The notes: generated by a model not told the origin, from the letters alone. 64,000 bases of DNA from Candidatus Bathyarchaeota archaeon (GCA_963739305.1 CAVTZU010000011.1:92152-156151); one strand, 5' to 3'; counted from the first letter of the stretch, positions 34,825-57,649 are shown. Made by a program: numbers and translations.

Positions 34825-34856
34825 GTTACAATTCAACATTACAAAAACCGTTACAA
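34825..34856 (+). repeat. 32-bp dispersed intergenic motif, copy 1
   Basis: GTTACAATTCAACATTACAAAAACCGTTACAA; 30/32 identical to the reverse complement of 57618-57649. Confidence 0.9.
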
Positions 34857-34928
34857 AAAAAAGCCTAGGACGGAAAATGTTCTTGAGCCGAAAACACTCA
34901 GGAACCCGTGCTAACCCCGTCCGTCAGT

Positions 34929-35486
34929 CTATGCTTTGAACCATTTGAAAATCAAATACCGCGTCTTTCCCTTTCTAGAATCAGGAACCGCGATGATGAA
35001 CCGTTTCCGAACCGTCGTCGCAAGCCTCCCAGCCTTAACAATCTCCGTCGCCGTCATATCCGCATCAGCATCCTTCACCGAAACCATATACGGCGCATGC
35101 TCAACACCAGGTCCATGCCTGTAAACCGCAAAGTCACAGCCAAACTTGATCCCAGGAGCCACAACCAACTCATTCTCCCTAAGATCACGATAAACAGCAT
35201 ACTTCTCATCAAACTCCTCGTACAACCGCTCCGCCATCTGCCGCAGCTTCTTCAGTCCCACCTTACCCCTCTCCGGCCCTTCGTAAACCGTTATCGCCCC
35301 CTTCTCAGCCAAATACAAACCCTCCATCAAATCAAGAATCAGCGGAACATCAAACTCCGGAACCTTCGGCTTAGCAATCCCAAGAGGCTTCCCATAAAAA
35401 CCAGTCCTGTAAAGCCGCGAACCCTCTTCAGGATTCCACACTACCAAGAAATTCTCAATCAACTCCACGCCTATCTTCTTAGGCAT
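34929..35486 (-). CDS. endA: tRNA-splicing endonuclease catalytic subunit
   Basis: VYRDLR, GIKFGCDFAVY (Tyr), HAPY (His), RLATTVRK (Lys). Confidence 0.92.
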   Translation of the reverse strand: MPKKIGVELIENFLVVWNPEEGSRLYRTGFYGKPLGIAKPKVPEFDVPLILDLMEGLYLAEKGAITVYEGPERGKVGLKKLRQMAERLYEEFDEKYAVYRDLRENELVVAPGIKFGCDFAVYRHGPGVEHAPYMVSVKDADADMTATEIVKAGRLATTVRKRFIIAVPDSRKGKTRYLIFKWFKA

Positions 35487-35502
35487 CAACCTGCGCGTCC
35501 TT

Positions 35503-36162
35503 TCACATCATAAAAGAAAGAATCCGCGCCGCATCAGTCGCATCCTCAGCCTTATCAGCCGAATCCTCCAAAAGCTTCGTCACATCCCTTAACAACACCA
35601 TCGCCGGAAAATCCATCTTACAACACAACAACTTGATCTCCAACTCCCGATAAAACCCATCCACCTTCCGCTCCGCGATCTCAACATCCTTCGCCTTCTC
35701 CATCGTCTTCTGCGCACCATAATTCAAAACCATCATCGTCTCCCTAAGCTTCAACACCGTCTCAAAAACAGCCTCCGAAAGCCTCAACAAATCCTTCTTA
35801 ACCTCCATCGGAACACTCCAACTGTGATTCGAAATCTCAATAAGCCGGAAAGCGATACCCTCAGAAAAATCAGCAATCTCACTCGTAAGGTTCGTAAACC
35901 TTAAGAAATCCTCCCTGCTCAACAGGATAGCCCCGATTTCAGCTAACTCCTGCGAAACAAGCCGTCTCGCTTTATCAACCTCCTCCTCCCCTCTTCGCAT
36001 TTCATCGTACAGCTGCCTCGCCTTCTCCTTATCGTTCTTCACAAAAAACTCTATCAACTGCGGAACCTTTCTGCTCAAGTCCATAACCTTCCGCAAATGT
36101 TCTTGGCAGACGCTTAACGCTCTTCGTTTCACACGCTCTTCAGTTTCAGCTGGAAGTACCAA
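35503..36162 (-). CDS. DUF47/PhoU-like phosphate transport regulator
   Basis: All-helical; EEEVD...REDFL and ERKVD...LEDSADKAED patterns. Confidence 0.82.
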   Translation of the reverse strand: MVLPAETEERVKRRALSVCQEHLRKVMDLSRKVPQLIEFFVKNDKEKARQLYDEMRRGEEEVDKARRLVSQELAEIGAILLSREDFLRFTNLTSEIADFSEGIAFRLIEISNHSWSVPMEVKKDLLRLSEAVFETVLKLRETMMVLNYGAQKTMEKAKDVEIAERKVDGFYRELEIKLLCCKMDFPAMVLLRDVTKLLEDSADKAEDATDAARILSFMM

Positions 36163-36248
36163 GATCCTTTTCCCACCCGCAAAACAGGCGAAGCTTCTTC
36201 ACCCATAGATGTTCTGTACTCTTAAAAACGTTAACGAAACACAAAAAC

Positions 36249-38006
36249 CTAAACAGGCTCACCCAACCGCTCAAACCCGATTTGACCTCGGAAGTACTCG
36301 TGCAAACGCACTCTAAGATCCTCAATTCGAGCTCTAACCTGCCGCCACGAATCACGGTCCCGAACGGTCACAGTGTTGTCCTTCAAAGTATCATAGTCCA
36401 CCGTGACACCCAACTGTGACCCAACCTCATCCGCCCGCGCGTACCTTCGCCCGATAGAACCCGCCTCATCGTACTCCACCGAAAACCGCTCATCAACCAG
36501 CATCTTATGAACTTCCAACGCCTTCTCAGGAAGCCCATCCTTGCTCACGAGTGGATAAACTCCAACCTGAATCGGAGCGATATCTCGCGGAAAAGCCAAC
36601 ACTACTCTGTCCTCTTTGATCTGATAAGCGTACTCAAGCGCCACGTACAAGAGCCTGTCCGAACCGAAACTAGGCTCGACCACATGAGGAACAAAGTGTC
36701 TACCGCGCTCCACAACCTTCTGACGCTGAACATCAACAAGTTCGGGTAGAATCTCATACTTCCCAAGCATATAGCGGCCATTCTTCTTCAGAGACGCCTC
36801 AAACTCCGTCGGATCAACTCTCGAAAGCAACTCAACAACCTTCCCTGCTTCCCCCTTAAAGACAGGTCCAAGCTTGATCATGATCGGCTTTATCACAACC
36901 TGTTCTTTTTCAACAGGCTTCTCATACTCCTTGAAAACACGCATGTCCGCGTTGCTATGAGTCATATGACTCTTCAGATCATAGTCGGATCTGTCAGCGT
37001 GGCCAGAAACTTCAACCCAGCCCCATCGTTCAACAAATACCTGCTGATCAAAAGTCTGACTGGAGTAATGCGCCTTCTCCCAAGGTAATTTCTCAATGAA
37101 CCTCTGCTTTTGCCCGGGAACCCCCAACTCAACAAGCAGCCTCTTTGCATACGCCATAAACACTGCTTGCCATTCCAACTTGATGACTCCTTTTTTCAGC
37201 GCTTCTTTGACACTCACTTCGGCAATGTCTTCAGAACCCTTCGACCTCGTCTCAGCCAAAAGGATTCGAAGTTTCTCATCTTCAACCTCTTTGAGGAGGT
37301 AGCAGTTGGGCTCTTCTGGGTCAAAAAAGAACTCTAGATCTGCTATCGTGAATTCCCTCAGCCTCAACAACCCTTGTCTCGGGGAAATCTCATTTCTCAG
37401 AGCACGCCCTATCTGGAGAATACCCAACGGAAGCTTTTCCCTTGAAAACCCGAAAAGCCTGCTGAACTCGACAAAGATACCTTGCGCAGCTTCAGGTCTT
37501 CCATAACCAACAGCCTTCGAATATGGGCCGATGGTGGTCTTAAACATCGTCAGAAACGTCTCGGCTTTTCCAAAGCTGCCGCCACAATCCGGACACTTGA
37601 TCTTGTTCTTCAAGATTTGGTTATTTATCTCCTCCAGACTCAGTTTTTCAGCCTCTGCTTCACTCATCCCCGCAAATTCTTCAAGTAAATGATCAGCCCG
37701 GAACCTTTTGCCACACTTTTGACATTCAACCAAAGGCTCTTTGAAATGATCGACATGTCCTGAAGCTTCAAACACAACCTCAGGAGTAATAACCGGAGAC
37801 TCTATCTCCAAGACCCCAAGTTTACCGACAAAGAGTTCCCTAAGCTTCATCTCTATATTCTGCTTCAATCTGGCTCCCAGCACGCCGTAAGTTACAAAAC
37901 CGCTTACCCCGCCATAGATCTCGTATGATTGCCAGAAGAAACCTCTCCGCTTTGCCAGCTCATTCACAGCCGTGAATTTGTCTAGGCTTCTGCTCTTCTC
38001 GCTCAT
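36249..38006 (-). CDS. glyS: Glycine--tRNA ligase (archaeal/eukaryotic type)
   Basis: EIYGG, ASGHVDHF, RPEAAQG, RNEISPRQGLLRLREF, EPSFG, SIGRRYARADE. Confidence 0.96.
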   Translation of the reverse strand: MSEKSRSLDKFTAVNELAKRRGFFWQSYEIYGGVSGFVTYGVLGARLKQNIEMKLRELFVGKLGVLEIESPVITPEVVFEASGHVDHFKEPLVECQKCGKRFRADHLLEEFAGMSEAEAEKLSLEEINNQILKNKIKCPDCGGSFGKAETFLTMFKTTIGPYSKAVGYGRPEAAQGIFVEFSRLFGFSREKLPLGILQIGRALRNEISPRQGLLRLREFTIADLEFFFDPEEPNCYLLKEVEDEKLRILLAETRSKGSEDIAEVSVKEALKKGVIKLEWQAVFMAYAKRLLVELGVPGQKQRFIEKLPWEKAHYSSQTFDQQVFVERWGWVEVSGHADRSDYDLKSHMTHSNADMRVFKEYEKPVEKEQVVIKPIMIKLGPVFKGEAGKVVELLSRVDPTEFEASLKKNGRYMLGKYEILPELVDVQRQKVVERGRHFVPHVVEPSFGSDRLLYVALEYAYQIKEDRVVLAFPRDIAPIQVGVYPLVSKDGLPEKALEVHKMLVDERFSVEYDEAGSIGRRYARADEVGSQLGVTVDYDTLKDNTVTVRDRDSWRQVRARIEDLRVRLHEYFRGQIGFERLGEPV

Positions 38007-38095
38007 CTCATCAGCCTTTCACTAGAGTAAACATCTCGGAGACATTAATCTTACTAAGCGGCGCCCGTTCGGGAAAACTTATTTTAGGAGACATC

Positions 38096-39163
38096 ATGAA
38101 GGGACACTCGATGATCGATATGCAAAAAGAAATACAGCTTCTCGAAAAACTCTCAAACGCTTTTGGGCCATCTGGAAATGAAGAAGACGTTGCTGAGATT
38201 CTCAAGAGAGAACTTGATTCGTACGCCGACGAAACAATCCTAGACAAGCTTGGAAACATAATATTTTATCATGAAGGGAAAAAAGATTATCCAAAAATCA
38301 TGCTTTCAGCCCACATGGATGAAGTAGGTTTCATAGTTACCTTCGTAGAAGAAGGCGGTTTCCTTCGTTTTGACACATTGGGCGGCATAACGAACAACGT
38401 GATGCCAGGGCAGCGCTTGCTTCTCAAGGGAGAAAAAGGCTACTTGAAAGGAGTCATCGGCACAAAACCACCACACATCATGACGCCTGAAGAGCAGAAC
38501 AAGATAATTCCGAAAGAGGACTTGTTCATCGACATCGGAGCAGACAACGCTAGCCAAGCCATGAGGAAGGGCGCTGACGTCGGAATCTCAGGCGTCTTTG
38601 ATGTCGAGTTTGCTGATCTAGGAGACGGCTACTTTAGAGGAAAGGCGCTTGATGACCGAGCTGGATGCGTCGTTCTCGCAGAAGCCTTCAAGGCTCTAAA
38701 GGACTCTCCCTGCAACGTCGTGGCAGCCGGAACAGTACAAGAAGAACTCGGTATACGCGGAGCAAAAACCGCTGCTTGGCAAGTGAACCCAGATTATGGA
38801 CTTGCACTCGAAGGAACATTCGTTGCAGACGTTCCAGGCATTAGGCCAGACAGAGTGTCTTCGAAGATCAAAGGAGGTCCCGTCCTAACAGTAATGGACA
38901 GAACCGTATTGACTCACCCCAAAGTTCTCAAGACCTTAATTGAATCAGGAAAAAGAAAGGCGATACCATTTCAGTTCAAAAAAGTGATGGTTGGCGGAAC
39001 AGATGCCGGAGCGATCAATCTCACCAAAGCAGGAGTCCCAAGCGGAACGGTTGCGGTTCCATGCAGATATATCCATGGCCCTGTCTCAATTGTTCACATT
39101 GATGATCTGAGGAACACAGTGAAGCTGGTAGTTGAATTCGTACGAACGATGCCCACCAAATAG
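38096..39163 (+). CDS. M42 (TET-like) aminopeptidase
   Basis: SAHMDEVG, KALDDR, QEELG, GGTDAG, RYIH. Confidence 0.93.
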   Translation: MKGHSMIDMQKEIQLLEKLSNAFGPSGNEEDVAEILKRELDSYADETILDKLGNIIFYHEGKKDYPKIMLSAHMDEVGFIVTFVEEGGFLRFDTLGGITNNVMPGQRLLLKGEKGYLKGVIGTKPPHIMTPEEQNKIIPKEDLFIDIGADNASQAMRKGADVGISGVFDVEFADLGDGYFRGKALDDRAGCVVLAEAFKALKDSPCNVVAAGTVQEELGIRGAKTAAWQVNPDYGLALEGTFVADVPGIRPDRVSSKIKGGPVLTVMDRTVLTHPKVLKTLIESGKRKAIPFQFKKVMVGGTDAGAINLTKAGVPSGTVAVPCRYIHGPVSIVHIDDLRNTVKLVVEFVRTMPTK

Positions 39164-39258
39164 TTGTGTTACCTGATTCAAGCACGAAGCAGGCAAACTG
39201 GCAACGTAGCCTTTTTTAAGGCACCAAGGATAAGAAGTTCCGAACGAGGTGTCAAAGC

Positions 39259-40320
39259 TTGGCGAAGATACGGGTGGCGTTGCTTGGAGTAGGCAACTGT
39301 GCTTCAGCTCTAGCTCAAGGATTACTATATTACAGTGGCAGCGGAAAAGAAATGGAAAGTATCGGTCTGCGGAACAGCGTTTTGGGTGGTTTTCGTCCAA
39401 CAGATGTTGAAATCGTCGCAGCATTCGATATTGACGAAAGAAAAGTTGGAAAGGATCTTTCACAAGCAATTTTCGCGGAACCCAATAACGCTCCGAAATT
39501 TGTGGACATGCCACTCTCCAACGTCGTTGTCAACAAGGGTCCAGTGATGGATGGCCTCGGAGAATACACGAAGAATGTGGTTCACGTAAGCAATCATAGT
39601 GAAGCAAACGTACCTTTGGTTCTGAAAGAAAGCGACGCAGAGATCCTGCTGAATCTGCTTCCGAGCGGCGCAGTCGAAGCTTCTCGCTGGTATGCGGAAC
39701 AGTCAATGGTAGCAGGCTGCGCTTTTGTAAACGCGACTCCTATCTTTATCGCCAGTGACCCGGGTTGGGCAAAGAAGTTTGAAACAGCTGAGCTTCCTGT
39801 CGTGGGCGACGACTTGATCGACCAAGTGGGCGCAACCACTCTGCACAAAACCTTGCTTGGCCTTCTTTCAGCAAACGGCGTTAGGATAACAGAGACTTAT
39901 CAGCTTGACGTTGGTGGAGGAACTGAATCTCTAGATACGCTTGAACGAACAAAAGACGTCAAGCGTATGGTGAAGACAAAGTCCGTGGAATCGGCCTTAC
40001 CTTATCCTGCATCAGTTGTAGCTGGGTCTACCGATTATGTCGATTTCCTTCAAAACAGACGTGACAGCTACTTCTGGATAAGGGGAACGTACTTCTGCAA
40101 TTTTCCAATGCAAATGGACTTGAAGCTGTCAACCGTCGATGCACCAAACGCTGGCTCGGTTCTGCTCGACATAATAAGAGCCGTCAAAATAGCCAGAGAA
40201 AGAAAAATGAAGGGTACAATATTGCCAATCTGCGCTTACGCTTTCAAACACCCCCCGCAGATTATGCGTCTTGACTCTGCCGAGAAATTGTTCGCAGAGT
40301 TTGTCAGTGAAGAAGTCTAG
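39259..40320 (+). CDS. ino1: Inositol-3-phosphate synthase family protein (divergent)
   Basis: GVGNCASAL, VAAFDIDERKVGKDL, FVNATP, VGDD, DAPNAG, FKHPP. Confidence 0.8.
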   Translation: MAKIRVALLGVGNCASALAQGLLYYSGSGKEMESIGLRNSVLGGFRPTDVEIVAAFDIDERKVGKDLSQAIFAEPNNAPKFVDMPLSNVVVNKGPVMDGLGEYTKNVVHVSNHSEANVPLVLKESDAEILLNLLPSGAVEASRWYAEQSMVAGCAFVNATPIFIASDPGWAKKFETAELPVVGDDLIDQVGATTLHKTLLGLLSANGVRITETYQLDVGGGTESLDTLERTKDVKRMVKTKSVESALPYPASVVAGSTDYVDFLQNRRDSYFWIRGTYFCNFPMQMDLKLSTVDAPNAGSVLLDIIRAVKIARERKMKGTILPICAYAFKHPPQIMRLDSAEKLFAEFVSEEV

Positions 40321-41447
40321 CGAGCACGGTGCTCTTTCACAAGCTGTTCCAGCCCATTTATCGTCTTCTGTCTGACTCCAGTTTCCACGAGTTTTCGTTT
40401 GAGAAAATCTATCGATCTGACGGGCGTCGGGTCGATGCCTCGGAGCACAGCAAGATAAACGCTCGTGAAGTCTCCGGTACATATGACTGACGCCATTCTG
40501 GCTAGCTTGCTCTTACCCTTGCTCCAAACTTCGAATAACCCTGTCAATGTTCGACTGATTAATTCTCTGCTAGTTTCTATTCTCAGTTTGATTTCTCTAG
40601 GTTCTTCTTTGTCACGGATGAAAATTACTGAGAAGTATTTTGCGAATTCTTTTGCTTCCTCCCAGCCCACGATTTCATTATGGTTGAGTTCTGGTAAATA
40701 CTCCCATTTTGCTGGGTTCTTACTATTCTCGTTTATTTGAGTCTTGAAGCGTTGCGCGACAGCTCGATAGAATCCAAATCCGTAAATAGTGGGAATTGTT
40801 CCTCGGATTTCTGTCGCCAGCGTCTTGGAAGGGTTACTGGCTGAGGGTATTTCAGGTGAATTCTCTTCACCAATCTGTTTCAAGATTCTTACAGTCTCTG
40901 AATACTCTTTCGGCATGCCTGGTGCAATGCCGATTTTCTGCAGTATGCGAGGAAGGGGAATGAAAAGATATGGTAAGGTTGCGCGCGGAGCCATTCCGCT
41001 TGGAACGAGCAGATGGGGCACGTCAAGCTCCTGGGCAAATCTTTGCAGTGTGCCCCCTGAGCTGATTGTAATCGTCATGCATTTTCTTTTCAAAGCCTCA
41101 AGAAACACGCTCAGGGTTTCTTCGGTTTCACCAGAATAGCTTGTAGCAAACAACAGGGTGTTTTCATCTGCATAAGCTGGCAAACTGTAATCTCTGCATA
41201 CCTCGATCGGCGTTTTTATGGTGTCTTTAGCCCAATCTTTCAGGAGTTCTCCTCCGATGGCTGATCCACCCATTCCCGCTACGACGATCGTTTTAGGTCT
41301 GCGATATTTGATCCTGACTTTTTCTGCCAGTTCGGCAGCATCTCTATAGTGTCTGGCGGCTTCAACACAGAACGACAACATGTCGCTTTTGTCGATTTTC
41401 CTGATTCTACTAGGGTCATCTAGAAGTGGTCTGCTCAATCTACTCAT
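40317..41447 (-). CDS. Bifunctional phosphoglucose/phosphomannose isomerase
   Basis: GMGGSAIGG, SYSGETEET, RFKTQINENSK, PELNHNEI. Confidence 0.93.
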   Translation of the reverse strand: MSRLSRPLLDDPSRIRKIDKSDMLSFCVEAARHYRDAAELAEKVRIKYRRPKTIVVAGMGGSAIGGELLKDWAKDTIKTPIEVCRDYSLPAYADENTLLFATSYSGETEETLSVFLEALKRKCMTITISSGGTLQRFAQELDVPHLLVPSGMAPRATLPYLFIPLPRILQKIGIAPGMPKEYSETVRILKQIGEENSPEIPSASNPSKTLATEIRGTIPTIYGFGFYRAVAQRFKTQINENSKNPAKWEYLPELNHNEIVGWEEAKEFAKYFSVIFIRDKEEPREIKLRIETSRELISRTLTGLFEVWSKGKSKLARMASVICTGDFTSVYLAVLRGIDPTPVRSIDFLKRKLVETGVRQKTINGLEQLVKEHRAR

Positions 41448-41548
41448 GACCTTTCCAAGTATTGTTAAGAAGATATGAAGCTTTCAGTTTTTAAGTCAAA
41501 GGTACACAAGAGATTCTCAAACGTAAGAAACAAACGGTTAGTGCTTGA

Positions 41549-43987: not shown

Positions 43988-44040
43988 GAAACTAAAGATA
44001 AGAATTAAGGTTTCCAACAATAAGAGAAGTTATGAAGGGT

Positions 44041-44364: not shown

Positions 44365-44391
44365 ACCCTTTCACCTCTTACATCGTCTATT

Positions 44392-45998: not shown

Positions 45999-46487
45999 CT
46001 AGGCCTTGTTCAATATGTCGTCGTGTTTGCCTTCATCAATCTCTTTTTGAATTTCACGCGGGTCTTTTCCTTCTGCAGTGACTCCCATGCTAACGCAGAC
46101 ACCCAGAATTTCCTTAGTTGCTGATTTCAGCGTTTTTGACAGTAGTTCTGGGCGTTTCATTTTGGCTATTCGTATCACTTGTTCAAGCGTGAGGTTTCCG
46201 ACTTTTTGTGTGCTTGGTGTGCCTGAGCCCTTTTCGACTTTCAGTTCGCTGACGATTAGTGCGGATGCCGTTGGGGTTCCAACGGTTACTTCGAACTCTT
46301 TGGTGTCTGGGTCAACGATGACTTTGACTGGTACCTTCATGCCCGAATAGTCTTTTGTGAGTTCGTTGATCTTGTTTACAATTGCCATGACGTTGACGCC
46401 TAGTGGTCCAAGTGCTGGGCCAAGGGGTGGTCCGGCGTTTGCTTGTCCTCCGCTTACGAGTAGTTCTACGGTTTTTTTGTCAGTCAT
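45999..46487 (-). CDS. rpl11: 50S ribosomal protein L11
   Basis: [18 protein letters not shown]. Confidence 0.97.
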
Positions 46488-46488
46488 T

Positions 46489-46977
46489 TTATGTTTCACC
46501 ACTGGCTTCGATTTTTGCTTTTTCCACGAGCTTGACGTAGTCTGAGCTGACTGTTATGGGTAGTGTGAAGGTGGCTTCTAATAGTTCGAGCGTGACTTCT
46601 GCTTTTGTTTTGTCGATTCGCGTGATTTTTGCGCGCATTCCCTTGAAGGGGCCGCCTGTCACTTCTACTATGTCGCTTTCGTGAAGTTCTTCGATGATTG
46701 GTTTTTTGACTATATATCGTTCGATTTCCGCGAAGTTGACTATTCCAGGGATTCTAGAGCGTACGTGTTTTACACCTGCTATTGCTTCTTCGACGAAATG
46801 TGGTCCTTCGGCTTCTATGAAAACGTAGCCTCGTAGTGTTTCAGGTGCGAGGATTGATCTTATGGGTATTTTGCTCATTCCAACTTTGGCTGCAACGAGT
46901 CTGGCGACGTTTCTTTCTTGGCCTGTTGTGGTTTTGACAGCAAAGATTTTGGCTGGGGGCTCTGCAGGCTTTTCCAT
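46489..46977 (-). CDS. spt5: Transcription elongation factor Spt5/NusG
   Basis: TTTGQE, GYVFIEA and KOW motif GPFKG. Confidence 0.96.
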
Positions 46978-46994
46978 TCAGGATTTCTTCCTTG

Positions 46995-47177
46995 TTAGGC
47001 TGCCGTTGTCCCTGGTTGGAGGGTACTGGACAAAAGTTTGATGATGAAGCCGACTAGTCCTACTGCTCCTAATCCTAGGAGGCAGATTTTTATTGATAGC
47101 CAAAGCTCACTTCTCCCAGGTTTGACAGCTAGCTTCAAGGTTCTTGCGCATTGAGTTAGGAAATCTCTTAAGCCCAT
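46995..47177 (-). CDS. secE: Protein translocase SecE/Sec61-gamma
   Basis: RTLKLAVKP..EL plus one TM; conserved position before spt5. Confidence 0.9.
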   Translation of the reverse strand: MGLRDFLTQCARTLKLAVKPGRSELWLSIKICLLGLGAVGLVGFIIKLLSSTLQPGTTAA

Positions 47178-47299
47178 GGTTACCGCCTTCTCAACATTAT
47201 GTTTTGATATAAAGTTTACTGTAAGTTCTGGTAGATAAAGACGCGCGTTTTCTATTAACTTTTCGTCGTGAGTGCAGATCACATTCTATGAGCATTTTG

Positions 47300-48139
47300 T
47301 CAGGTTTTCATATAGGGCACTTCAGTTTTCGTGATGATATTGATCAATGATGGTTTGTCTTCTGCTTTGATTCCCTTCCAGTCGAGGATGATGGTCTCGA
47401 CTTTTTCTGATGTTTTCTTGATGCACTGTTCTAGGACGTTTTCGTCGATTTTTGCAACGGCGTATTTTGGTATTATGTGTCCAAAGGCGAGTTCTTTTTC
47501 TAGCGCGATTCGTGTGAATTTTTCGTTGTAGTGTGGTCCGCCTATGCCTAGTACGGCTTTTGCTGGGTGACTGTCAAAATGTTGGGCTGCGTTCATGGCT
47601 GCGTGTGCGACTGCTTCTGCGGCCTTAGCGTCTTTCCATTCTTTTGGTGAGCTTCCTAGTTCGGTGAACATTGTTGGGACGTCTAGTGAGGGTCCATGGT
47701 GTGTGGCCTCATAGCTGACTTGGTAATTGAGTTTGAACTCGTTCTTGAGTTTCGCCATTGTTTTCAAGGCTTCTCTCATTGCGTTAGGAGGCGATGTTGA
47801 GACCTTTCTTGGGATTCCGCCCATTTCGGCTTCTGCCAGGTTTCCTGGTGTGTGTACTGAAAGGGTAGGTGTTCCGCTGAGGCTGCTGTGTCTTGAAATG
47901 AAGATTATGAGTTCTAGGTTTGTGAATGAGTGCGGGAGGTTTTGTGCATTGATGGACTCGTTGTTCAGAGTGATCAGTTCGATGTTTCGGTTTGCGATTG
48001 TGATTTCGTAATTTGGGTTCGATTGATATTGGACTTGTTTTTCGTTGAAGTCGTAGTTGCTGAGGATTTGTTTTCGGATGTTTAGACTAGCTATGTCAGT
48101 GTTTGAGGCGACTATGAGGATCATGATTTTTGCTTCCAT
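47300..48139 (-). CDS. dtdA: D-aminoacyl-tRNA deacylase (archaeal DTD2)
   Basis: SRH, VHTPGN, EATHHGP, ELGS, GGPHY, GHIIPKY. Confidence 0.93.
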   Translation of the reverse strand: MEAKIMILIVASNTDIASLNIRKQILSNYDFNEKQVQYQSNPNYEITIANRNIELITLNNESINAQNLPHSFTNLELIIFISRHSSLSGTPTLSVHTPGNLAEAEMGGIPRKVSTSPPNAMREALKTMAKLKNEFKLNYQVSYEATHHGPSLDVPTMFTELGSSPKEWKDAKAAEAVAHAAMNAAQHFDSHPAKAVLGIGGPHYNEKFTRIALEKELAFGHIIPKYAVAKIDENVLEQCIKKTSEKVETIILDWKGIKAEDKPSLINIITKTEVPYMKT

Positions 48140-48232
48140 ACGGAACTGTGAGTTTGTGGGAGAGAGGTTTGCATAAAGCTTATAATTGTTGTTTGTGGTT
48201 GAAGGCTTTGTTGTTTGATTGTGGGTGATTGT

Positions 48233-49147
48233 ATGCATTTGCTTAACTTCAAGGAGTTGAGTGGGAAGCAGATAGCTGAGGTCGTGGAGAAGGGCGTTGA
48301 AGTCAAGCATCATCCAGAACGGTTCGCGGCGAGCTTGGAGGGAAAGTCATGTGCTTTGATTTTTCAGAAGACGTCGACTCGAACGAGGGTGTCGTTTGAG
48401 GTGGCGATGACTCAGCTTGGTGGTCACGGCTTGTTCATTGATTGGAGGACGACGAATTTTGGTTTGGCTGATTTGGGTGATGAGACCCGGTATTTGTCGA
48501 GGAACGTTGATTGCATCATGGCTAGGTTGATGAGAAACGTGGATTTGGAGGCGATGGCGCGGGCTTCTCGTGTTTCGGTGATCAATGGTTGTGATGAGAA
48601 ATATCATCCGAGTCAAGCGATTGCTGACTTGATCACCGTGAGAGAGCGGAAGGGGAAGCTGAAGGGAGCGAGTTTGGTGTACGTGGGGATCCATAACAAC
48701 GTGTGTAATTCTCTTGTTGAGGGCTGTACGAAGACGGGGGTCACGATTACCACAGTGACGCCTATCTTTAATGAGCCAAGTCGAGACGATGAATTGTTAG
48801 AAGAGGCTAAGGCAAGTGGACTGTGGAAGACAACAATGGATGTCAACACGGCTGTGAGAGATGCGGATTTTGTGTACACAGATACGTGGGTTGATATGGA
48901 GTACTTCGCTGATCCGAAGTTTGCCGTGGAGAAGGAGAAGCGGCTGACGGAGATGATGCCCTTTCAGGTCAACATGAAACTGTTGAAGGACAGCAGGGCT
49001 TTCGTCATGCATGATATGCCTATTCATCGAGGCTACGAGATTGCTGGTGACGTTGTAGATGATGAGCGGTCGGTGATTTTTGAGCAGAGTGAGAACAGGT
49101 TGTACTCGGCGAAGGCGATTTTGTTGAAGCTGTTAGGAAAGTATTGA
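48233..49147 (+). CDS. argF: Ornithine carbamoyltransferase
   Basis: STRTRVSFE, HPSQAIADL, YTDTWVDM, MHDMP, QSENRL. Confidence 0.9.
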   Translation: MHLLNFKELSGKQIAEVVEKGVEVKHHPERFAASLEGKSCALIFQKTSTRTRVSFEVAMTQLGGHGLFIDWRTTNFGLADLGDETRYLSRNVDCIMARLMRNVDLEAMARASRVSVINGCDEKYHPSQAIADLITVRERKGKLKGASLVYVGIHNNVCNSLVEGCTKTGVTITTVTPIFNEPSRDDELLEEAKASGLWKTTMDVNTAVRDADFVYTDTWVDMEYFADPKFAVEKEKRLTEMMPFQVNMKLLKDSRAFVMHDMPIHRGYEIAGDVVDDERSVIFEQSENRLYSAKAILLKLLGKY

Positions 49148-49331
49148 GTTGCCATAGCGAAACACGGGCGTTCGGGTGCGATTGAGAATCTTTCACAACC
49201 GTACAAAAGCGGATTCCTCCCCTCCTAGGTTTCAATGTATCATGGATATTTGGATCCAAATAGGAATTGTCTTCTTTGATCTTGCTGGCGGCGTTCTTGT
49301 TCGTTTAACGTAGGTCTATAGAATTGCACGT

Positions 49332-51590: not shown

Positions 51591-51593
51591 GGA

Positions 51594-52103
51594 TTAGTCT
51601 CCTTCAGCCAAATAAACAGTCACGTTTCCTTCTTTGTCTTTTTCTGCTCGTACACGGATTTTTCTCGGGGGCTTTTCGATCCCTCTTGACCACATCTTCT
51701 CGTTTACTTCATTGTCAATAATAAGCCGTGCCGGTTCCTCTTCCTCTTCGGCTTCTCCTTCTTTTCGGCTTTCCAACTTCATGTGTTTGATCATGAAACT
51801 TCGGAGGATCCGCATGGCTCGTGACGTTCTCTTGTTAGGCGGACTGATCCATGCCTTGCTAAGCGGCACCGTGTAAATCCGTTCTTCAACTATTTCCTTT
51901 TCTTTTCCTTTCTCAGGCTTGGCTTCCTCTTCCACCTCAACAACCGGTACCGCTTCTTTCGCTTCAGCTTCTGCCTCGGGCTCTGCAGGCTTTTCTTCGG
52001 CTTCCACAGGCTCCTCTGTTTCCTCTTCTTTCAGTTCCTCTGCGAGGTCTGCTAGCTCTTGGTCTTCTTTCTGTTCGGGTTTCTCTTCTGCTTTCTTTTC
52101 CAT
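51594..52103 (-). CDS. rpl31e: 50S ribosomal protein L31e with acidic N-terminal extension
   Basis: ERIYTVPL and VNEKMWSRGIEKPPRKIRV. Confidence 0.93.
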   Translation of the reverse strand: MEKKAEEKPEQKEDQELADLAEELKEEETEEPVEAEEKPAEPEAEAEAKEAVPVVEVEEEAKPEKGKEKEIVEERIYTVPLSKAWISPPNKRTSRAMRILRSFMIKHMKLESRKEGEAEEEEEPARLIIDNEVNEKMWSRGIEKPPRKIRVRAEKDKEGNVTVYLAEGD

Positions 52104-52115
52104 GAAATTCTCCTC

Positions 52116-52271
52116 CTATGCCCTTATTTTTCTACTCCGCCATTGTCTTTTTTTAGGGTGTTGCCTAAATTTGCCGCCTGATTTGGCCATGACCCACGTT
52201 GGAACTGGTTTCTTTTGCTTACCTGCTTTGGCAAGCCTGCGTTTCTTCGCAGTTGGTTTGTTTCGTGCCAT
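52116..52271 (-). CDS. rpl39e: 50S ribosomal protein L39e
   Basis: Manual translation MARNKPTAKKRRLAKAGKQKKPVPTWVMAKSGGKFRQHPKKRQWRSRKIRA (below the ORF track cutoff). Confidence 0.95.
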   Translation of the reverse strand: MARNKPTAKKRRLAKAGKQKKPVPTWVMAKSGGKFRQHPKKRQWRSRKIRA

Positions 52272-52274
52272 TTC

Positions 52275-52613
52275 TTATCTCCTCGTTATCGTTGTTTCAC
52301 GTTTGCGAGCTTGAAGTTGGATTAGTATTTTCTTGAGTTGTTCATCGCCCAAGGGCACGGGGATCTTTGCTTGTTGCGCTAGTTGGATCAGTTGGAGTTC
52401 TAGCTGCTCAGTGAATTCTGGCCTGACCATCTTGAGGTTTGCCAATCTCTGCCTCGCCTCAGGAGTCAGTATGCTTCTCAGGAGAGCTTGCTTCTGTTGC
52501 TCCATCTGTTGTTCTGCTTGTGCGCCCTTTTGCTCATCCGTCATCTGTCTTTGCAGGGCTGAGAGCTTTCTTCTGCGGAGCTCTTCCAGCTCTTCATCTG
52601 ACATTTCACTCAC
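52275..52613 (-). CDS. PDCD5-like DNA-binding protein
   Basis: LTPEARQRLANLKMVRPE...LIQLAQ. Confidence 0.93.
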   Translation of the reverse strand: MSEMSDEELEELRRRKLSALQRQMTDEQKGAQAEQQMEQQKQALLRSILTPEARQRLANLKMVRPEFTEQLELQLIQLAQQAKIPVPLGDEQLKKILIQLQARKRETTITRR

Positions 52614-53073
52614 CTTTTTGGTACTTCTGGAGTTCTGGACGCTCCTTCACAATTTCTCTACTGAGTTCCTCAGCTATTTCCTTCAGAACTTTTCTCCCAG
52701 CAGGTGTGACTTTTCTGCCGCGAGTTTTCACTGTTTCAACGTATCCTGCTGCTTGCAGCTGTTGCAGCGCTTTTCGAATAACTGATCCGCCTGCTTTCGT
52801 CGCGTGTTTGGGTTTTACGCCTTTGCTGCTTCTTCCTCCGTAATCGGCCCTTAGCTTTTCAATGCCGATCGGGCCACGAACATATGTTTTCCGCAGTATT
52901 GAGGCGCATCTGACGTACCACCAGTCCGGGTTTTGAGGTTGCTGCTGGACGTGAGTGCCTGTTTTCACGACGCTTGCCCATGTTGGGGGTGTTACTGCTT
53001 CAACGTTCTCTTTTAGGTACTTGGCTAGTTTCGGGATGAATTTCGATACTGGAACGTCGTTCGGAGTTACCAA
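52606..53073 (-). CDS. rps19e: 30S ribosomal protein S19e
   Basis: WASVVKTG, DWWYVRCASILRK, RKALQQL. Confidence 0.96.
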   Translation of the reverse strand: MVTPNDVPVSKFIPKLAKYLKENVEAVTPPTWASVVKTGTHVQQQPQNPDWWYVRCASILRKTYVRGPIGIEKLRADYGGRSSKGVKPKHATKAGGSVIRKALQQLQAAGYVETVKTRGRKVTPAGRKVLKEIAEELSREIVKERPELQKYQKGE

Positions 53074-53132
53074 TACTCTTTATCCTCTTTAGGTTTCCTT
53101 CAGTAAAATCATGAGGCGACATATAAAGGCTT

Positions 53133-53414
53133 TCACTTGGCGCGGGGCTTGTAAAGAATGAAGGTGTGACCCCTCACTTCTACCAGTGTTGCGATGGTTT
53201 GTTGGGCGATGGTTTCTGCAACTTCTTTTGCTTCATTATCAGAAAGAGCGCTTTTCAGTATTTTCGCTTTGACCATCTTATTTTTTTCCAGTTGCTTCTC
53301 AATTTCCTTGAGCAATTCCGCTGACGCTCCGCTTTTGCCGATCCACACTGTAGGGTTCGCGTCGCCTAGCTGCCTCATGACGTATCTTCTCTTGCCTGCG
53401 GTAAGTCCAGTCAT
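53133..53414 (-). CDS. YhbY/CRM RNA-binding protein
   Basis: PTVWIGKSG, VKAKIL, VRGHTFILY. Confidence 0.92.
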   Translation of the reverse strand: MTGLTAGKRRYVMRQLGDANPTVWIGKSGASAELLKEIEKQLEKNKMVKAKILKSALSDNEAKEVAETIAQQTIATLVEVRGHTFILYKPRAK

Positions 53415-53734
53415 CTTTCCACGTTTCTTCGTTTTTTCACAAGCGGTATCCTCGTCTGTCCACCACACCTTAAGCACGTGACCACTACGTGTGGTTCTCG
53501 TTTCTGCTGCACGCGCACTCGACAGTTTACGCCGGGTAAGATAAAGCTTTTACAACGACCACAAATTTGACGTCTATATTCCACTGGCAGCCGGATCTTA
53601 ACAGACATGGCTATTCTCCTGGCCATGTCGACGTAGTGCTGAGCGAGTTGAGGGTCTCGACTGACATTGTTTCTGGCAAGGCTGAAAAGCGTTTGAATGC
53701 GTTGTCTCGCTATTCGTCTGACGTTTTCGTCCAA
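53411..53734 (-). CDS. rnp4: Ribonuclease P protein Rpp21
   Basis: ARQRI..L and zinc ribbon CGRC...CLRC. Confidence 0.93.
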   Translation of the reverse strand: MDENVRRIARQRIQTLFSLARNNVSRDPQLAQHYVDMARRIAMSVKIRLPVEYRRQICGRCKSFILPGVNCRVRVQQKREPHVVVTCLRCGGQTRIPLVKKRRNVER

Positions 53735-53873
53735 GCCCTCTCCTGCTCCGCCATCTAGATTGATCTTTAAGGAATTAGTCTTTTCGACGAATCGCGCGCA
53801 CTAAGGAGGAAGTTCGAGTCCATTGGACACACAAGACAAATATAAAATGGTCATGCCTTTGAGTTAGTGGGGC

Positions 53874-55037
53874 GTGGAGAAGATTAGAAGCAAAGTCTGT
53901 GGTGTCGGATACATCAACAGGATTAGGGATAACCTTCATACTGTAAGGAGACGGGAACTCTCTCAACTGTATGAGGATTTGAAGTCTGCGGACTGTGTGG
54001 TGTGCGGTGGTTCTGGTAGGTCACTTTATTCTCTCAATGCTGCCATGAGTCAGATTGCGATCAGTCAGACTGGTTGGAGAAACAAAGTTGTGCTGACTCC
54101 TGATGATCCTGGTTTTCCAGGCAAGAACATGTACGAGGCAGCTGATGAGTTGGAGAGGCGGTTTAGCAAGGTTCTTTTATTGATGAATTCCGGCAGTGGC
54201 GTGTCAGGAGATCCAGTGATGATGGCTCAGGATCTTCATAAGTACATTGAGGAGAAAGGGCACTCGAAGTTTTCGATGGGTTTGTTAACATCTAACGTAA
54301 ATTCAGCGTTGGCCCAGATCGTCCAGAAGCACGGGAACGTGGTTGAGGTGAAGGGGCGAGGAAGGACGAAGCCTTCGCTTGACTACAGCGAGACAGGGAT
54401 TATGGGCGACATCTTTGAGCTGGGCAGTCTTTTGCTCATGTCCATGATGACTGAAGCGATTTTTCGAAACCTAGACGCAGGTGAAGTGCTGCGCTTGTGC
54501 GAAGAAGAGTTTGCTAGGCTGGGGCCAATGGTGGATTTGGCGGTGGAGTCTGACACGTATTCTCAGCTAGTCGATATTCTGGAGAAGCGAACGAGCGTTT
54601 TCCTGGGTGGTAAGGGCACGGCCAGCCAGATCGTAAAGATGACGGCGATCAGGCTATTCCATATCAAGAGCACTTTGGGAGACAACGTGTATATCGCGCG
54701 CGGTGTGAACACTCCAGCTCCAAGACCAGGCGACTTGGAGATTCTATTGTCTTTTTCCGGTGAGACCAAGGCAGTTGTTGCTTGGTGTGACACGTTGAAG
54801 AAGATGAGCGGTACGGTCTTGGCGATTACAGGAGCAAAGAAATGCACGTTGTGTGACAAATCGGATCTTCAGATAGTGTTGGAGGAGGAAGCTAAGCAGG
54901 GTCAGCCTAGGCGGTTTTACATGCGGGCCGCGTATGTTTTGAGCCCGTTACCTGTGAAGATGGTTGAAAGATTGGGTGATAAGGGGTTAAGGTTGCCAGA
55001 GTACATAATTCATTGGCATCACTCGCTCACAGAATGA
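53874..55037 (+). CDS. Tandem SIS-domain (phosphohexuloisomerase-like) protein
   Basis: GSGRS...NSGSG...MGDIFE in domain 1; GKGTA...RLFHI...SFSGET in domain 2. Confidence 0.75.
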   Translation: MEKIRSKVCGVGYINRIRDNLHTVRRRELSQLYEDLKSADCVVCGGSGRSLYSLNAAMSQIAISQTGWRNKVVLTPDDPGFPGKNMYEAADELERRFSKVLLLMNSGSGVSGDPVMMAQDLHKYIEEKGHSKFSMGLLTSNVNSALAQIVQKHGNVVEVKGRGRTKPSLDYSETGIMGDIFELGSLLLMSMMTEAIFRNLDAGEVLRLCEEEFARLGPMVDLAVESDTYSQLVDILEKRTSVFLGGKGTASQIVKMTAIRLFHIKSTLGDNVYIARGVNTPAPRPGDLEILLSFSGETKAVVAWCDTLKKMSGTVLAITGAKKCTLCDKSDLQIVLEEEAKQGQPRRFYMRAAYVLSPLPVKMVERLGDKGLRLPEYIIHWHHSLTE

Positions 55038-55239
55038 CTTTCTCAAGGCGGTTATTCAAGTTCTTCTCTCGAGAGGCATCTTGCTTCGTATCCTGCCCAA
55101 GGTCGTGGGTTCTCTGATAACCAAATGGGAAGCAGGCTAGTGTGAACTATTGACGCGCAACGCAACCCTATTGTTTCAGGCAGGGTCATGTTTCTTTTTT
55201 TCGTTTCTTCAAGAAATCCAAAATGGTCCTTTCTCTGCG

Positions 55240-56136
55240 CTACGTATTTCTCAACTTTTTCCTCATGGTCTTCCTGACGCTTTCTACGCGGAAACCTAAA
55301 CTTCGCAGTAGAGCATTGGAAGAAACGTTCTGTTCGGACGTTCCTAACCTCGCTGAGTCCATTCCTTTTTCAAAAAGAAAATTCATCGATCGAGCTGTTA
55401 ACGCCGATGCAAGGTGACGGTTGCGAAACTCTGGGAGCGTCGCTGCGGGTCCTAGGTACCCCCTGTTCAAGTGCATGTATTTGATCGCGTCAGTGTCTGG
55501 CTTCGCCACGACGGTTGATACGATTTTTCCCTCGATTTCTGCGAGTTGAACCCAGTCCTCCTTGAAAGGGGGGTCTTCAGATTTCCAGATTTCTAAATCT
55601 CCGAGTTCTAACCTTTGCCATCCGAATCCTGCATTCACAGCTGCAACGAATTCCTTTTCTTCATTGCTCCTCAAACTTCGAAGGATCACGTCCGTCCCGA
55701 CCTTTGGGATCGGTATGACACCGTTGAGTTTTGCGGACATTCGCTCAAAACCAGGTTGCAATTCGTAGCCACGCTTTATCCAATTGCTAATCTTTGGGTT
55801 TCCTTCGTCAATCGATGTTACGATAGTGTTCACGGTGGGGTCTTTTTCAACTTCGGTTATGAGCGTATTTTCGACGGTTTCTTGGTTCGGTCCCTTGATT
55901 GCGGCGAGCCAGGAAATGTCTTTTTCGGAGTTTTCATGAAGATGCGTGCCTATGATGCCTAGTATCTTGCTTTTTTCTTTGGCCACAAGAATGTTGAGAT
56001 GGCGTCTACGAATCTGGGAGAGGACTCTTTCCTCGTTGAACGGAATAAATTCATTAGAGTTTTTGTATTCTTCATTTAGCAGTTCAACTAGAGATAGCAA
56101 ATCCTCGTCAGTGAATTCCACAATTTTAAGCGCCAT
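55240..56136 (-). CDS. Tandem GNAT acetyltransferase
   Basis: ATLPEFRNRHLA and N..S..L..SLGF motifs. Confidence 0.85.
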   Translation of the reverse strand: MALKIVEFTDEDLLSLVELLNEEYKNSNEFIPFNEERVLSQIRRRHLNILVAKEKSKILGIIGTHLHENSEKDISWLAAIKGPNQETVENTLITEVEKDPTVNTIVTSIDEGNPKISNWIKRGYELQPGFERMSAKLNGVIPIPKVGTDVILRSLRSNEEKEFVAAVNAGFGWQRLELGDLEIWKSEDPPFKEDWVQLAEIEGKIVSTVVAKPDTDAIKYMHLNRGYLGPAATLPEFRNRHLASALTARSMNFLFEKGMDSARLGTSEQNVSSNALLRSLGFRVESVRKTMRKKLRNT

Positions 56137-56220
56137 AGTCTCTTTCAGAAGAGGTACATAACTTCTATAAACCTTTGCTCGATGCATGCATCTTGCCCTG
56201 CGGAATATTGTGCTAGCTAG

Positions 56221-57480
56221 CTAAGTAGCGTTCGAATCCTGGGCTATGATTGACTTGTATATTTCGGCTGTTTGTTCGGCTACTTTTTTCCAGGTGAAGA
56301 ATTGAATGGCTCTTTTCCTGCCGTTTTGGCCCCATTCTCTGGCTCTCTGTGGGTCTTTGAGAACTTCTTTCACTCCCCAGGCTATGTCCACTGGGTCTTG
56401 GCCGTTGACGTGGATTCCTGTTTGGTCTGGGCCGGAGGGTATGACTTGTTCTCTGAAGCCGACTACTCCGTGGGCTCCGACGACTATTGGTTTCTCCATG
56501 GCCATGGCTTCTAGGCTGACTATTCCGAATGGTTCGTAGACAGAGGGGAATATGCATGTGTCAGCTGCGGCGTAATGCAGGATTCTTTCGTCTTCTGGGA
56601 CGAAGTCGAAGCGGCAGATGACGTTTTCTTTGATTCCGAGCCTTGCGGTCATTTCGGTGATGTCGCTTTGTTCTTCTCCTTTGCCGAGGATGACGAGTTT
56701 AGTCTTGGGGTATTCTTCGAGTATTAGCGGTAGGGCTTGAACTAGGTTTCTGATGCTTTTGACCCATGTGAGTCTGCCGACGAACAGTAGGAGGTTCCAG
56801 TCTTTTGGAGTTTCGTACTTTTCTCTTATGGTGTCGATCGCGTCTTCGCTGATGTTTTTAGGGTTGTAGCGGTCTGTGTCGACGCCGTTCCAGACGACGC
56901 TGATTTTGGATTCGTTCCAGCCGTGGCGGGTGAGGTCGTCTCTCATGGCGTAGCTGACTGTGACTATTCTGTTTGCGAGTTGCGCCGTGGCCTGCTCAAA
57001 GTGTGATACTACTTCGGAGCCTCCGTCTCCGCTTCTTCCCCATTCGGTGCTGTGTACGTGGAATACGAGGGGGAGGTTTGTTTCGTTTTTGGCTATTATG
57101 CCTGCGATGCTGCTGAGCCAGTCGTGGACGCAGACGATGTCGAACTTGGAATGTTCTTTTTTGATGAGTTGGTTGACGAATTTGGTTGCGCTTAGGACGT
57201 TGTACATGAAGATGTCGCTGAAGAAACGGATGTTTGTTCCCCATTTCACGAGGTCGTTTGCGACGAACATTGGGAAGACGTTGCTTGCGTTTGCGATCAT
57301 GGGGCGGTGCACTTCGACTCCTTTGAGGACTTCTGTTGTTTTGAGGTTTCCTGGGTTTAATGTGAACACGGTGACGTCGTGGCCCATTTCGATGTACTGA
57401 TGTGTGATGTATTGGGCGTAGGTTCCGAGTCCGCCGACGAGTTGTGGCGGGTATTCCCAGACGAAGAATCCGATTCTCAT
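56221..57480 (-). CDS. GT4 glycosyltransferase (glycogen-synthase-like)
   Basis: WEYPPQLVGGLG, HDW, HSTE, FVGRL, PSVYEPFGIVSLEAMA. Confidence 0.92.
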   Translation of the reverse strand: MRIGFFVWEYPPQLVGGLGTYAQYITHQYIEMGHDVTVFTLNPGNLKTTEVLKGVEVHRPMIANASNVFPMFVANDLVKWGTNIRFFSDIFMYNVLSATKFVNQLIKKEHSKFDIVCVHDWLSSIAGIIAKNETNLPLVFHVHSTEWGRSGDGGSEVVSHFEQATAQLANRIVTVSYAMRDDLTRHGWNESKISVVWNGVDTDRYNPKNISEDAIDTIREKYETPKDWNLLLFVGRLTWVKSIRNLVQALPLILEEYPKTKLVILGKGEEQSDITEMTARLGIKENVICRFDFVPEDERILHYAAADTCIFPSVYEPFGIVSLEAMAMEKPIVVGAHGVVGFREQVIPSGPDQTGIHVNGQDPVDIAWGVKEVLKDPQRAREWGQNGRKRAIQFFTWKKVAEQTAEIYKSIIAQDSNAT

Positions 57481-57617
57481 GAGGTGTTTTCTCCTTGTTT
57501 CTGTTATTTCTTGTTGTGGAGTAGATTACGTTTTTGTTTTTGTGATGGTTCGGAGTTGAAGATTCGAAGGTTTGAAGGGATCTTTTTTGGTTTTGTTGGC
57601 GAAGAGAGGTCGGTTTG

Positions 57618-57649
57618 TTGTAAGGGTTTTTGCAATGTTGAATTGTAAC
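57618..57649 (-). repeat. 32-bp dispersed intergenic motif, copy 2 (inverted)
   Basis: Reverse complement GTTACAATTCAACATTGCAAAAACCCTTACAA; 2 mismatches to 34825-34856. Confidence 0.9.

Follow-up and report, generated by a model that had tools for sequence, protein, structure and literature searches.

Short oriented repeats in the genome of a Candidatus Bathyarchaeota archaeon (GCA_963739305.1, referred to here as G000) stand at the edges of strand-skew patches, stretches of DNA in which one strand is rich in A and C. They are described here from a 64,000-nucleotide stretch of that genome (the window; contig C11:92152-156151 of an assembly of 2.32 Mb in 36 contigs), in which an earlier note had picked out a 32-bp intergenic motif in two copies, each beside a one-sided patch. 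The finding is larger than first noted: polar strand-skew patches are seeded by three families of oriented repeats, to one of which the 32-mer belongs. With high confidence, a genus-specific cassette that carries the 32-mer (family A), a MITE-like family (miniature inverted-repeat transposable elements; family B) and a short element (family C) mark the abrupt upstream boundary of patches that extend for 1-3 kb, in which the element strand is pushed to C and A whatever the direction of the genes, and this is a lineage-specific mutational effect tied to the adjacent element. Together these features point to a local, directional mutation process, no description of which was found in full-text searches of open-access papers.

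Oriented repeats and polar skew patches

Throughout, the element strand is the strand on which a motif or repeat reads forward, and downstream is counted along it. The A+C content of 1-kb windows in G000 has a mean of 0.502 (standard deviation 0.049) with heavy tails. An element was scored as skewed where the 1 kb downstream held at least 0.60 A+C on the element strand and as oppositely skewed at 0.40 or below, with 5000 random oriented intergenic positions of G000 as the control. Skew follows 27 of the 44 elements (7/11 in family A, 18/26 in family B and 2/7 in family C) compared with 3.2% of the controls (p 2e-29; for family A alone, binomial p 1e-8), and not one of the 44, the 11 family A copies included, shows the opposite skew. 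The association is equally clear from the side of the patches. Runs of 1-kb windows with A+C of at least 0.64 or at most 0.36 number 44 as listed and about 36 as distinct patches once overlaps are merged by hand; a correctly oriented element lies at the 5' edge of 23 of these 36 and a wrongly oriented one at none, and three more have a family B copy 1-1.8 kb from the nominal edge. Aggregate profiles, which pool only the skewed copies of families A and B and describe shape rather than prevalence, are alike in the two families: A+C is 0.52-0.57 upstream and jumps to 0.64-0.69 at the element, then stays level up to about 1.2 kb before falling back to baseline by 2.5-3 kb.

The 32-mer itself is neither necessary nor sufficient for skew. 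It is not necessary because two unrelated repeat families give the same profile, and not sufficient because 4/11 of its copies in G000 and 21/24 of those examined in relatives are unskewed, with downstream skew in only three of the latter. Sites outside the three families that hold an A-run plus a G-run, CCTAGG or G6 show no link to skew, so the shared core alone is not sufficient either.

Three patches lie within the window (Table 1). AC3, the proportion of codons that end in A or C, can be read on the plus strand irrespective of gene orientation, and along patch 1 this plus-strand AC3 runs 0.86, 0.82 and 0.66 and then 0.62 and 0.53, with the genes upstream of the motif at 0.45-0.61. GC skew is -0.46 and -0.51 at 35.0-36.0 kb; near patch 2 it is +0.18 to +0.30 (56.5-58.0 kb), with AT skew of -0.31 to -0.36 at 56.5-57.5 kb and -0.14 at 57.5-58.0 kb. 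The hand counts of the earlier note were exact (44/60 A+C at 35581-35640 and 46/60 G+T at 57541-57600), and its description of the skew as one-sided and fading with distance from the oriented motif holds. It had further proposed that the skew tracks the orientation of the site and not the strand of the gene. This is borne out by endA and GT4, which are both on the minus strand and have low and high AC3, respectively; Pfam confirms that strand for these two genes and for PhoU_div and the class II aminoacyl-tRNA synthetase, and as all four share it, patches 1 and 2 differ in sign with respect to the genes and agree in sign with respect to the motif. Third positions read on the element strand are about 0.5 C, 0.35 A, 0.1 G and 0.05 T in both patches. 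In the first four 300-nt bins past GT4 (about 1.2 kb) A+C is 0.53-0.56, versus 0.39-0.56 in eight motif-free orthologues and 0.39-0.53 in three of the relatives (G001, G002 and G008). Patch 3, which begins at a family C element, has GC skew of +0.44 at 48.0-48.5 kb and coding AC3 of 0.76 for D-aminoacyl-tRNA deacylase, 0.67 for SecE, 0.83 for Spt5, 0.74 for L11, 0.65 for L1, 0.55 for L10 and 0.60 for L12.

Table 1. Features of the window, numbered from its first letter, and loci elsewhere in G000 given by contig. PWM, position weight matrix.
Feature	Position	Strand	Remarks
Intergenic cassette (~155 nt) holding family A copy 1	34771-34928		between methyltransferase stop and endA stop
Family A copy 1 (three TTACAA units)	34825-34856	+	PWM 54.7 bits
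Skew patch 1, A+C-rich plus strand	34857-38006	+	three minus-strand genes
endA	34929-35489	-	patch 1; AC3 0.14-0.15
PhoU_div	35503-36162	-	patch 1; AC3 0.18
Class II aminoacyl-tRNA synthetase	36249-38006	-	patch 1; AC3 0.34
Skew patch 3, A+C-rich minus strand	45999-49218	-	OTCase, D-aminoacyl-tRNA deacylase, SecE, Spt5, L11; decay into L1, L10, L12
OTCase	48215-49147	+	patch 3, antisense to element strand; AC3 0.24
Family C element	49219-49263	-	between 3' ends of OTCase (+) and FtsY (-)
GNAT gene	55240-56187		weaker shift from patch 2
Skew patch 2, A+C-rich minus strand	56221-57617	-	GT4 leader and GT4
GT4 glycosyltransferase	56221-57480	-	patch 2; AC3 0.85
Family A copy 2	57618-57649	-	PWM 49.6 bits; 138 nt upstream of GT4 start codon
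Nine family B copies in longer repeats	C7:12256, C23:19679, C36:67767, C1:12255, C9:73004, C8:44464, C17:52555, C18:31294, C20:123168		
Genes in patches sharp on both sides	C25:17964-18764, C26:10877-11962, C15:5005-5919, C10:6122-6796		three match Phage_integrase (Pfam); C10 integrase-like by eye

The skew belongs to the DNA strand rather than to the genes it crosses. Over 1581 genes of G000, AC3 has a mean of 0.545 (standard deviation 0.096) and ranges from 0.14 to 0.94. Plus-strand AC3 is correlated between adjacent genes that are codirectional (r = 0.70, n = 607), convergent (0.52, n = 151) or divergent (0.49, n = 131); this correlation weakens over some 5 kb and is close to zero past 10 kb, and patches of either polarity occur within single contigs. 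Pfam matches confirm the orientation of 18/20 of the lowest-AC3 genes, which include those for homocitrate/IPM synthase, DNA ligase, PheRS alpha and beta, MttB, EF-2, PFL and AOR, and of 20/20 of the highest, which include ERCC4, three recombinases, ThyX, GT2, M48 and Spt5; the AC3 order is not an expression ranking. First and second codon positions shift only slightly, and the patches cover core genes whose products are 80-93% identical to their orthologues. The earlier note had named gene strand and amino-acid content as explanations that would undo its reading; both are contradicted, since opposite-strand neighbours share the skew and orthologues differ in it.

Five orthologous genes are extreme only in species with an adjacent element, where the flanks are assembled, with the ligase of one relative (G004) as the exception. 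The AC3 of endA is 0.15 in G000, where family A is adjacent, 0.76-0.77 in G001, G002, G008 and G010, and 0.52-0.64 in G005, G006, G007 and G009, none of these eight relatives having the motif within 1.5 kb of the gene; in G003 it is 0.18 and the contig ends at the endA stop. GT4, with family A upstream, has 0.85 in G000 and 0.52-0.67 in eight orthologues without the motif. DNA ligase, with family B 53 nt past its stop, has 0.14 in G000 and 0.37-0.46 in six relatives, together with 0.23 in G003, where the contig ends at the stop, and 0.26 in G004, where the gene is partial and no element was detected. ERCC4 reaches 0.94 in G000 with family B 138 nt upstream and has 0.31-0.54 in nine relatives, among them G001 (0.39), in which a family B copy points away from the gene. 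For EF-2 the values are 0.21 in G000, where a family B copy lies about 1.03-1.07 kb past the stop, 0.27 and 0.30 in G003 and G004, which share the orthologous copy, and 0.37-0.69 in 25 other genomes. These contrasts argue for local mutation pressure and not for codon selection.

Singleton synonymous changes were counted in the trio G000, G003 and G004, at a divergence where parsimony is unreliable. On the G+T-rich sense strand of the EF-2 patch A>G stands at 0.21 versus 0.11 for T>C, and C>T at 0.17 versus 0.07 for G>A; the corresponding pairs in an unskewed control trio are 0.055/0.077 for A>G/T>C and 0.042/0.033 for C>T/G>A. The earlier note had expected extra C>T and A>G changes on the strand complementary to the motif strand, and the EF-2 pattern fits both this and the outcome predicted for deamination on the complement of the element strand. 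No present excess of rate is visible in the synonymous divergence of endA, whose third-position identity is 0.82-0.92 within the clade of G001, G002, G008 and G010, where it lies in a patch, compared with 0.74-0.90 in unskewed genes; for ERCC4 the G000 branch is longer. Orthologous family B copies are kept across three species in which synonymous sites are only about 66% identical. Loss of alkylation repair was considered as a cause and rejected, because Ogt-type domains are present in G000 (two matches). A search for MutS_V in the 97% complete G000 found none, and only NucS is present.

Composition has also affected gene calling in the window, and perhaps regulatory sequence. In relatives the GT4 leader is conserved and has, ahead of the start codon, a TTAATTA box and GGAGGG. 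It is replaced in G000, where the leader (57481-57617) is about 80% A+C and lacks both signals, as would be seen after overwriting or replacement of the former promoter. A 201-codon open reading frame (ORF) without a Pfam match runs antisense to endA (34908-35513, plus strand); it stays open because endA codons end in G or T, so that the antisense codons never start with T. Through the same composition effect the gene caller missed OTCase and called doubtful ORFs on G+T-rich strands.

The three repeat families

The 32-bp motif of family A consists, as first described, of three TT(A/G)CAA units whose starts are 13 and 12 bp apart. The two window copies are 30/32 identical and differ only at the two degenerate positions; they compare with no match in 100 dinucleotide shuffles of the window, and they are the only sites in G000 within 3 mismatches of the motif. 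The further copies on which the earlier note had made its case depend do exist: a PWM built from looser motif matches finds exactly 11 in G000, at 45.9-60.8 bits, with the next-best site at 20.5 bits and a maximum of 27.6 in a reversed-genome control. They are dispersed, with one or two per contig. Within the genus, 6/10 other species have 1-13 copies each; in 30 genomes from other genera of the same family and order none was found. Copy 1 does lie between convergent genes (a SAM-methyltransferase ORF on the plus strand and endA on the minus) and copy 2 between divergent ones (GT4 on the minus strand and an MFS gene on the plus). The flanks are not wholly unrelated, contrary to what had been claimed: family A copies have in common some 15 nt downstream, made up of an A-run with either CCTAGG or a G-run, and the DNA shared by the copies around the motif has no inverted ends and extends from about -36 to +50-80 nt.

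The cassette that holds copy 1 is an insertion, as the methyltransferase gene and endA abut without a spacer in G006 and G009, and this presence/absence polymorphism is compatible with mobility. The earlier note had considered a promoter operator unlikely from the position between convergent genes; that position does not count against the inserted cassette acting as a promoter or terminator. Read on the minus strand, it shows T8 and T5 runs after the endA stop. A bacterial-type terminator scan near copy 1 gave one match versus 0.7 expected, and the hairpin after endA is not exceptional (z = -1.05). The methyltransferase upstream is split into two ORFs, 34139-34495 and 34492-34770, of which only the first matches methyltransferase families; in G006 and G009 the gene is uninterrupted up to the endA stop, and the split form in G000 may reflect a frameshift or a pseudogene.

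Most family A copies in relatives share about 60 nt upstream of the motif, and in this stretch a small multi-copy gene on the opposite strand has its 5' end. Some 6 nt separate the gene start from the motif, which is followed on its other side by a G-run. In G000 a single homologue of the gene is left, broken into two frames, next to the family A copy on contig C15. The small protein has only sub-threshold matches, to antidote/repressor families (E about 0.03), and a low-confidence AlphaFold model (predicted local distance difference test score 61.5) has a strand-helix-helix order at the N-terminus. These features bear on a possible operator of a ribbon-helix-helix (RHH) repressor, which would consist of repeats just upstream of the repressor gene. 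Family A is probably the promoter/operator region of a small multi-copy gene whose product has a beta-alpha-alpha N-terminus, and probably survives in G000 mostly as solo copies. The earlier note had not recognised the motif as an origin recognition box (ORB) or a dif site, and it is neither. ORBs have a dyad-symmetric core with a G-string and occur as clustered inverted copies around an AT-rich unwinding element beside orc1/cdc6, whereas family A has direct repeats without a dyad in 11 dispersed copies (adjacency to cdc6 was not searched); dif/Xer sites have inverted arms and occur as one site of about 28 bp per replicon, unlike these 11 copies with direct repeats. Nor is the 32-mer the end of an insertion sequence or MITE, as no terminal inverted repeats bound a repeated unit. 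The only NucS gene of G000 (C26:51061-51390) lies just upstream of the family A copy at C26:52475, probably by coincidence.

Families B and C were found by comparing the 5' edges of patches. Family B has 26 intergenic copies in G000 of about 150-165 nt, with 8-bp terminal inverted repeats; the alignment ends read TCAACATG ... CATGTTGA, and between them lie an A+C-rich arm, an A7 run, a G-rich core and two small hairpins. Short, multi-copy, non-coding and bounded by terminal inverted repeats, it is MITE-like in its sequence features. It is expanded in G000, with 1-4 variant copies in four relatives and none in other genera. No consensus RNA structure is apparent (alifold energy 0 on the forward strand and -1.6 on the reverse, without covariation). 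Nine copies (Table 1) are embedded in longer repeats that extend on both sides and fall into two subfamilies, in one of which a T5-6 run and a C-rich tract lie some 20-35 nt past the element. These nine include all eight family B copies without downstream skew, and the ninth, C23:19679, is borderline at 0.60; an Ogt-type gene (C23:20160-20387) lies in the weak patch downstream of it, probably by coincidence. Family C has seven copies in G000, with a 44-nt core that contains a 14-bp palindrome, and the window copy is identical over 44 nt to those on contigs C18 and C33. Inverted terminal repeats were found in neither family A nor family C. No Rfam family matches the window at the gathering score, and ARAGORN finds no tRNA there; at seven loci with family A or B, Rfam matches with E up to 0.1 comprise one tRNA and no other family.

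Adjacent elements of the three families form 25 pairs, of which 11 are convergent and three divergent by hand count. The domains enclosed by facing elements measure about 9-23 kb, and include that between the window copies of family A at 34.8 and 57.6 kb. Four small genes with 78-93% A/C-ending codons lie in patches that are sharp on both sides and have no element of any of the three families (Table 1). The one on C26 abuts a tRNA gene. These four patches of recombinase genes, which are among those of the 36 without an element, probably form a class of their own, made up of integrated elements.

Possible origins of the skew

We tentatively favor an account, itself short of an even chance, in which transcription launched by the cassettes drives strand-asymmetric mutation. 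The cassettes would be outward-reading promoters, and possibly also terminators for transcription arriving on the other strand. The launched transcription would run for 1-3 kb, sense or antisense to the local genes, and would bias mutation or repair between the strands so that the RNA-like strand gains C and A. A PWM for archaeal BRE/TATA promoters was trained on 44 tRNA upstream windows, with a pass set at or above the random 95th percentile; by this score of sequence alone, 18/26 family B copies pass on the forward strand and 4/26 on the reverse, compared with 2/11 on either strand for family A and none of seven on either for family C. In family B the promoter-like site is at one fixed position near the right end, from which it would read outward. 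Elements with a sense downstream gene are skewed in 14/18 cases versus 13/26 for those facing an antisense gene, and coding strands genome-wide lean to A/C-ending codons, in the same direction as the patches, as their mean AC3 shows.

A number of points weigh against transcription as the driver. The low pass rates of families A and C are one, and the conserved neighbor gene of family A in relatives is on the other side of the motif and on the other strand. The A+C sign is opposite to the usual non-template G+T excess, as described in passages of PMC2927911, and ribosomal-protein genes have AC3 of only 0.52-0.74 though presumably highly transcribed. Strong antisense transcription into housekeeping genes would be needed at 13/27 skewed elements. 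Runs of T5 or longer just downstream are found at 3/27 skewed and 5/17 unskewed elements, a difference that is not significant (p = 0.23) and is confounded by composition. Orientation-independent skew also occurs in non-extreme genes (r = 0.42-0.46), which a DNA-level process explains more simply. A bolder proposal, possible but rather unlikely, is that mobile cassettes switch on a local, strand-directed process of hypermutation or repair by way of a 1-3 kb track of nicking, resection or helicase action, and so rewrite nearly every downstream synonymous site within the divergence of sister species, independently of replication direction and ordinary expression. A nick/resection site and a helicase loading site had both been raised by the earlier note, and either may be involved. 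If true, it would constitute a new sequence-programmed regional mutation bias in a cellular chromosome, able to invert a gene's codon usage.

One DNA-level alternative, which we consider unlikely, starts from a nick made at a specific site in the element strand, from which 5'->3' resection, or strand-directed excision and refilling, proceeds downstream; the complementary strand would be exposed again and again, or would always serve as the template, so that its deaminations (C>T, A>G) become fixed and the element strand turns A+C-rich. It accounts without extra assumptions for the sign, the polarity, the sharp onset, the decay over 1-3 kb and the independence from gene orientation and expression, and the substitution asymmetry of the EF-2 patch fits it. 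The terminal inverted repeats of family B make a transposase-type nickase conceivable; cutting at both of them, however, predicts a two-sided switch of sign, which is not seen (upstream A+C is 0.52-0.56), and families A and C lack such repeats. Moreover, no candidate nickase was identified, and as MutS was not found and only NucS is present, canonical nick-directed mismatch repair is unlikely. Less probable again are polar terminators, recognizable on the opposite strand by a T-run and a C-rich tract; in front of them, transcription coming from the downstream side would stall or form R-loops, and the non-template strand would be exposed and turn G+T-rich, the classical sign. Here the sign matches known transcription-linked deamination, as portrayed in parts of PMC2927911, and orthologous family B copies are conserved in three species despite synonymous divergence. 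Reverse-strand T-runs of at least 6 are found in 26/26 family B and 8/11 family A copies, which agrees with an oligo-T signal at the level of sequence, and in only 1/7 family C copies. Among the skewed elements 13/27 face an antisense gene, 12 of them within about 80 nt of its called end, and these 3' ends include those of the EF-2 operon, AOR, PFL, MttB, PheRS, ligase and endA; the other 14/27, however, lie upstream of sense genes, where strong antisense read-through would be needed, and the candidate source genes are often unskewed (0.47-0.64).

The fork trap proposed by the earlier note, that is a polar barrier at which replication forks arriving from downstream pause at a protein-bound element and leave the lagging-strand template single-stranded, is improbable. 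Its geometry and sign fit, as the patch lies on the side of the arriving fork, and the excess of facing pairs among neighboring elements agrees with it. However, no replichore-scale order was found, the AC3 correlation vanishing beyond 10 kb and the polarities being mixed within contigs; all 27 of the 44 elements would need head-on forks, and many separate traps would be required in 2.3 Mb. We give marginally less credence still to reverse causality or import, in which elements insert or survive at pre-existing skew edges or the patches are foreign DNA. Family B does resemble a mobile element, and the four recombinase patches sharp on both sides, one beside a tRNA gene, resemble imported DNA. 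Against this, the five gene comparisons show no skew without a matching-orientation element in the assembled flanks, the ligase of G004 excepted, element orientation is 27:0, and the patches cover conserved core genes in which codon positions 1 and 2 shift slightly. Translational codon selection or amino-acid content as the cause of the third-position bias can be set aside almost completely. The slight lean of coding strands to A/C-ending codons is in its favor; EF-2 (0.21) and Spt5 (0.83) nevertheless stand at opposite extremes, endA flips between sister species (0.15 versus 0.76), intergenic leaders are skewed too, and opposite-strand neighbors share the skew of the DNA strand.

Related systems and further observations

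Vertebrate mitochondrial DNA has a G+T-rich and an A+C-rich strand, attributed to deamination while single-stranded, with a gradient that follows exposure time. The asymmetry in G000 is comparable in size and type; that of mitochondrial DNA, however, is genome-wide and tied to strand-displacement replication, whereas here dozens of 1-3 kb patches are scattered in a cellular chromosome. Tus-Ter and RTP-Ter are oriented protein-binding sites with a one-sided effect that occur in facing pairs, and the elements described here are likewise oriented, with a one-sided effect and facing pairs; they differ in having no terminus context or replichore order and in that three unrelated sequences have the same effect.

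In vertebrates, transcription-associated asymmetry is confined to the first 1-2 kb, and the sign of A>G/T>C in fish is reversed relative to mammals, according to sections of PMC2927911. The G000 patches resemble this: both are strand-specific, begin at a defined start, extend about 1-2 kb, involve mainly transitions and have a lineage-dependent sign, and the precedent counts in favor of the transcription account. Unlike the vertebrate case, the patches are seeded by dispersed repeats in a prokaryote, are far stronger (third positions up to 94% A/C), cross genes of either orientation and are A+C-rich on what would be the RNA-like strand, opposite in sign to the mammalian pattern. Prokaryotic MITEs can carry regulatory signals, for example the terminator-like SPRITE elements treated in portions of PMC10969869, and family B appears similar in being short, multi-copy and intergenic, with inverted repeats and predicted promoter-like and terminator-like signals. 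Families A and C differ in having no inverted terminal repeats, and those portions of PMC10969869 do not report a directional compositional patch after a MITE. No comparable skew patches were found in full-text searches of open-access papers.

Under such a process, mutation spectra would be programmable at the kilobase scale by small insertions; the same housekeeping gene has 76% A/C-ending codons in one species and 15% in its sister. This affects the inference of expression and horizontal transfer from codon usage, as well as gene calling and phylogenetics, in uncultured archaea, and it offers a natural system in which to separate transcription-, repair- and replication-linked mutagenesis in archaea, where these are poorly known.

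Contamination of the G000 assembly is given as 7.8%, and near-identical tRNA loci are found on separate contigs (C1/C15, C7/C31, C12/C21 and C13/C15; Leu/Thr, His, Gly and Pro), from which it follows that the assembly holds some redundancy or strain mixture. The tRNA calls by ARAGORN in G000 that include introns of 366-1703 nt are probably false.

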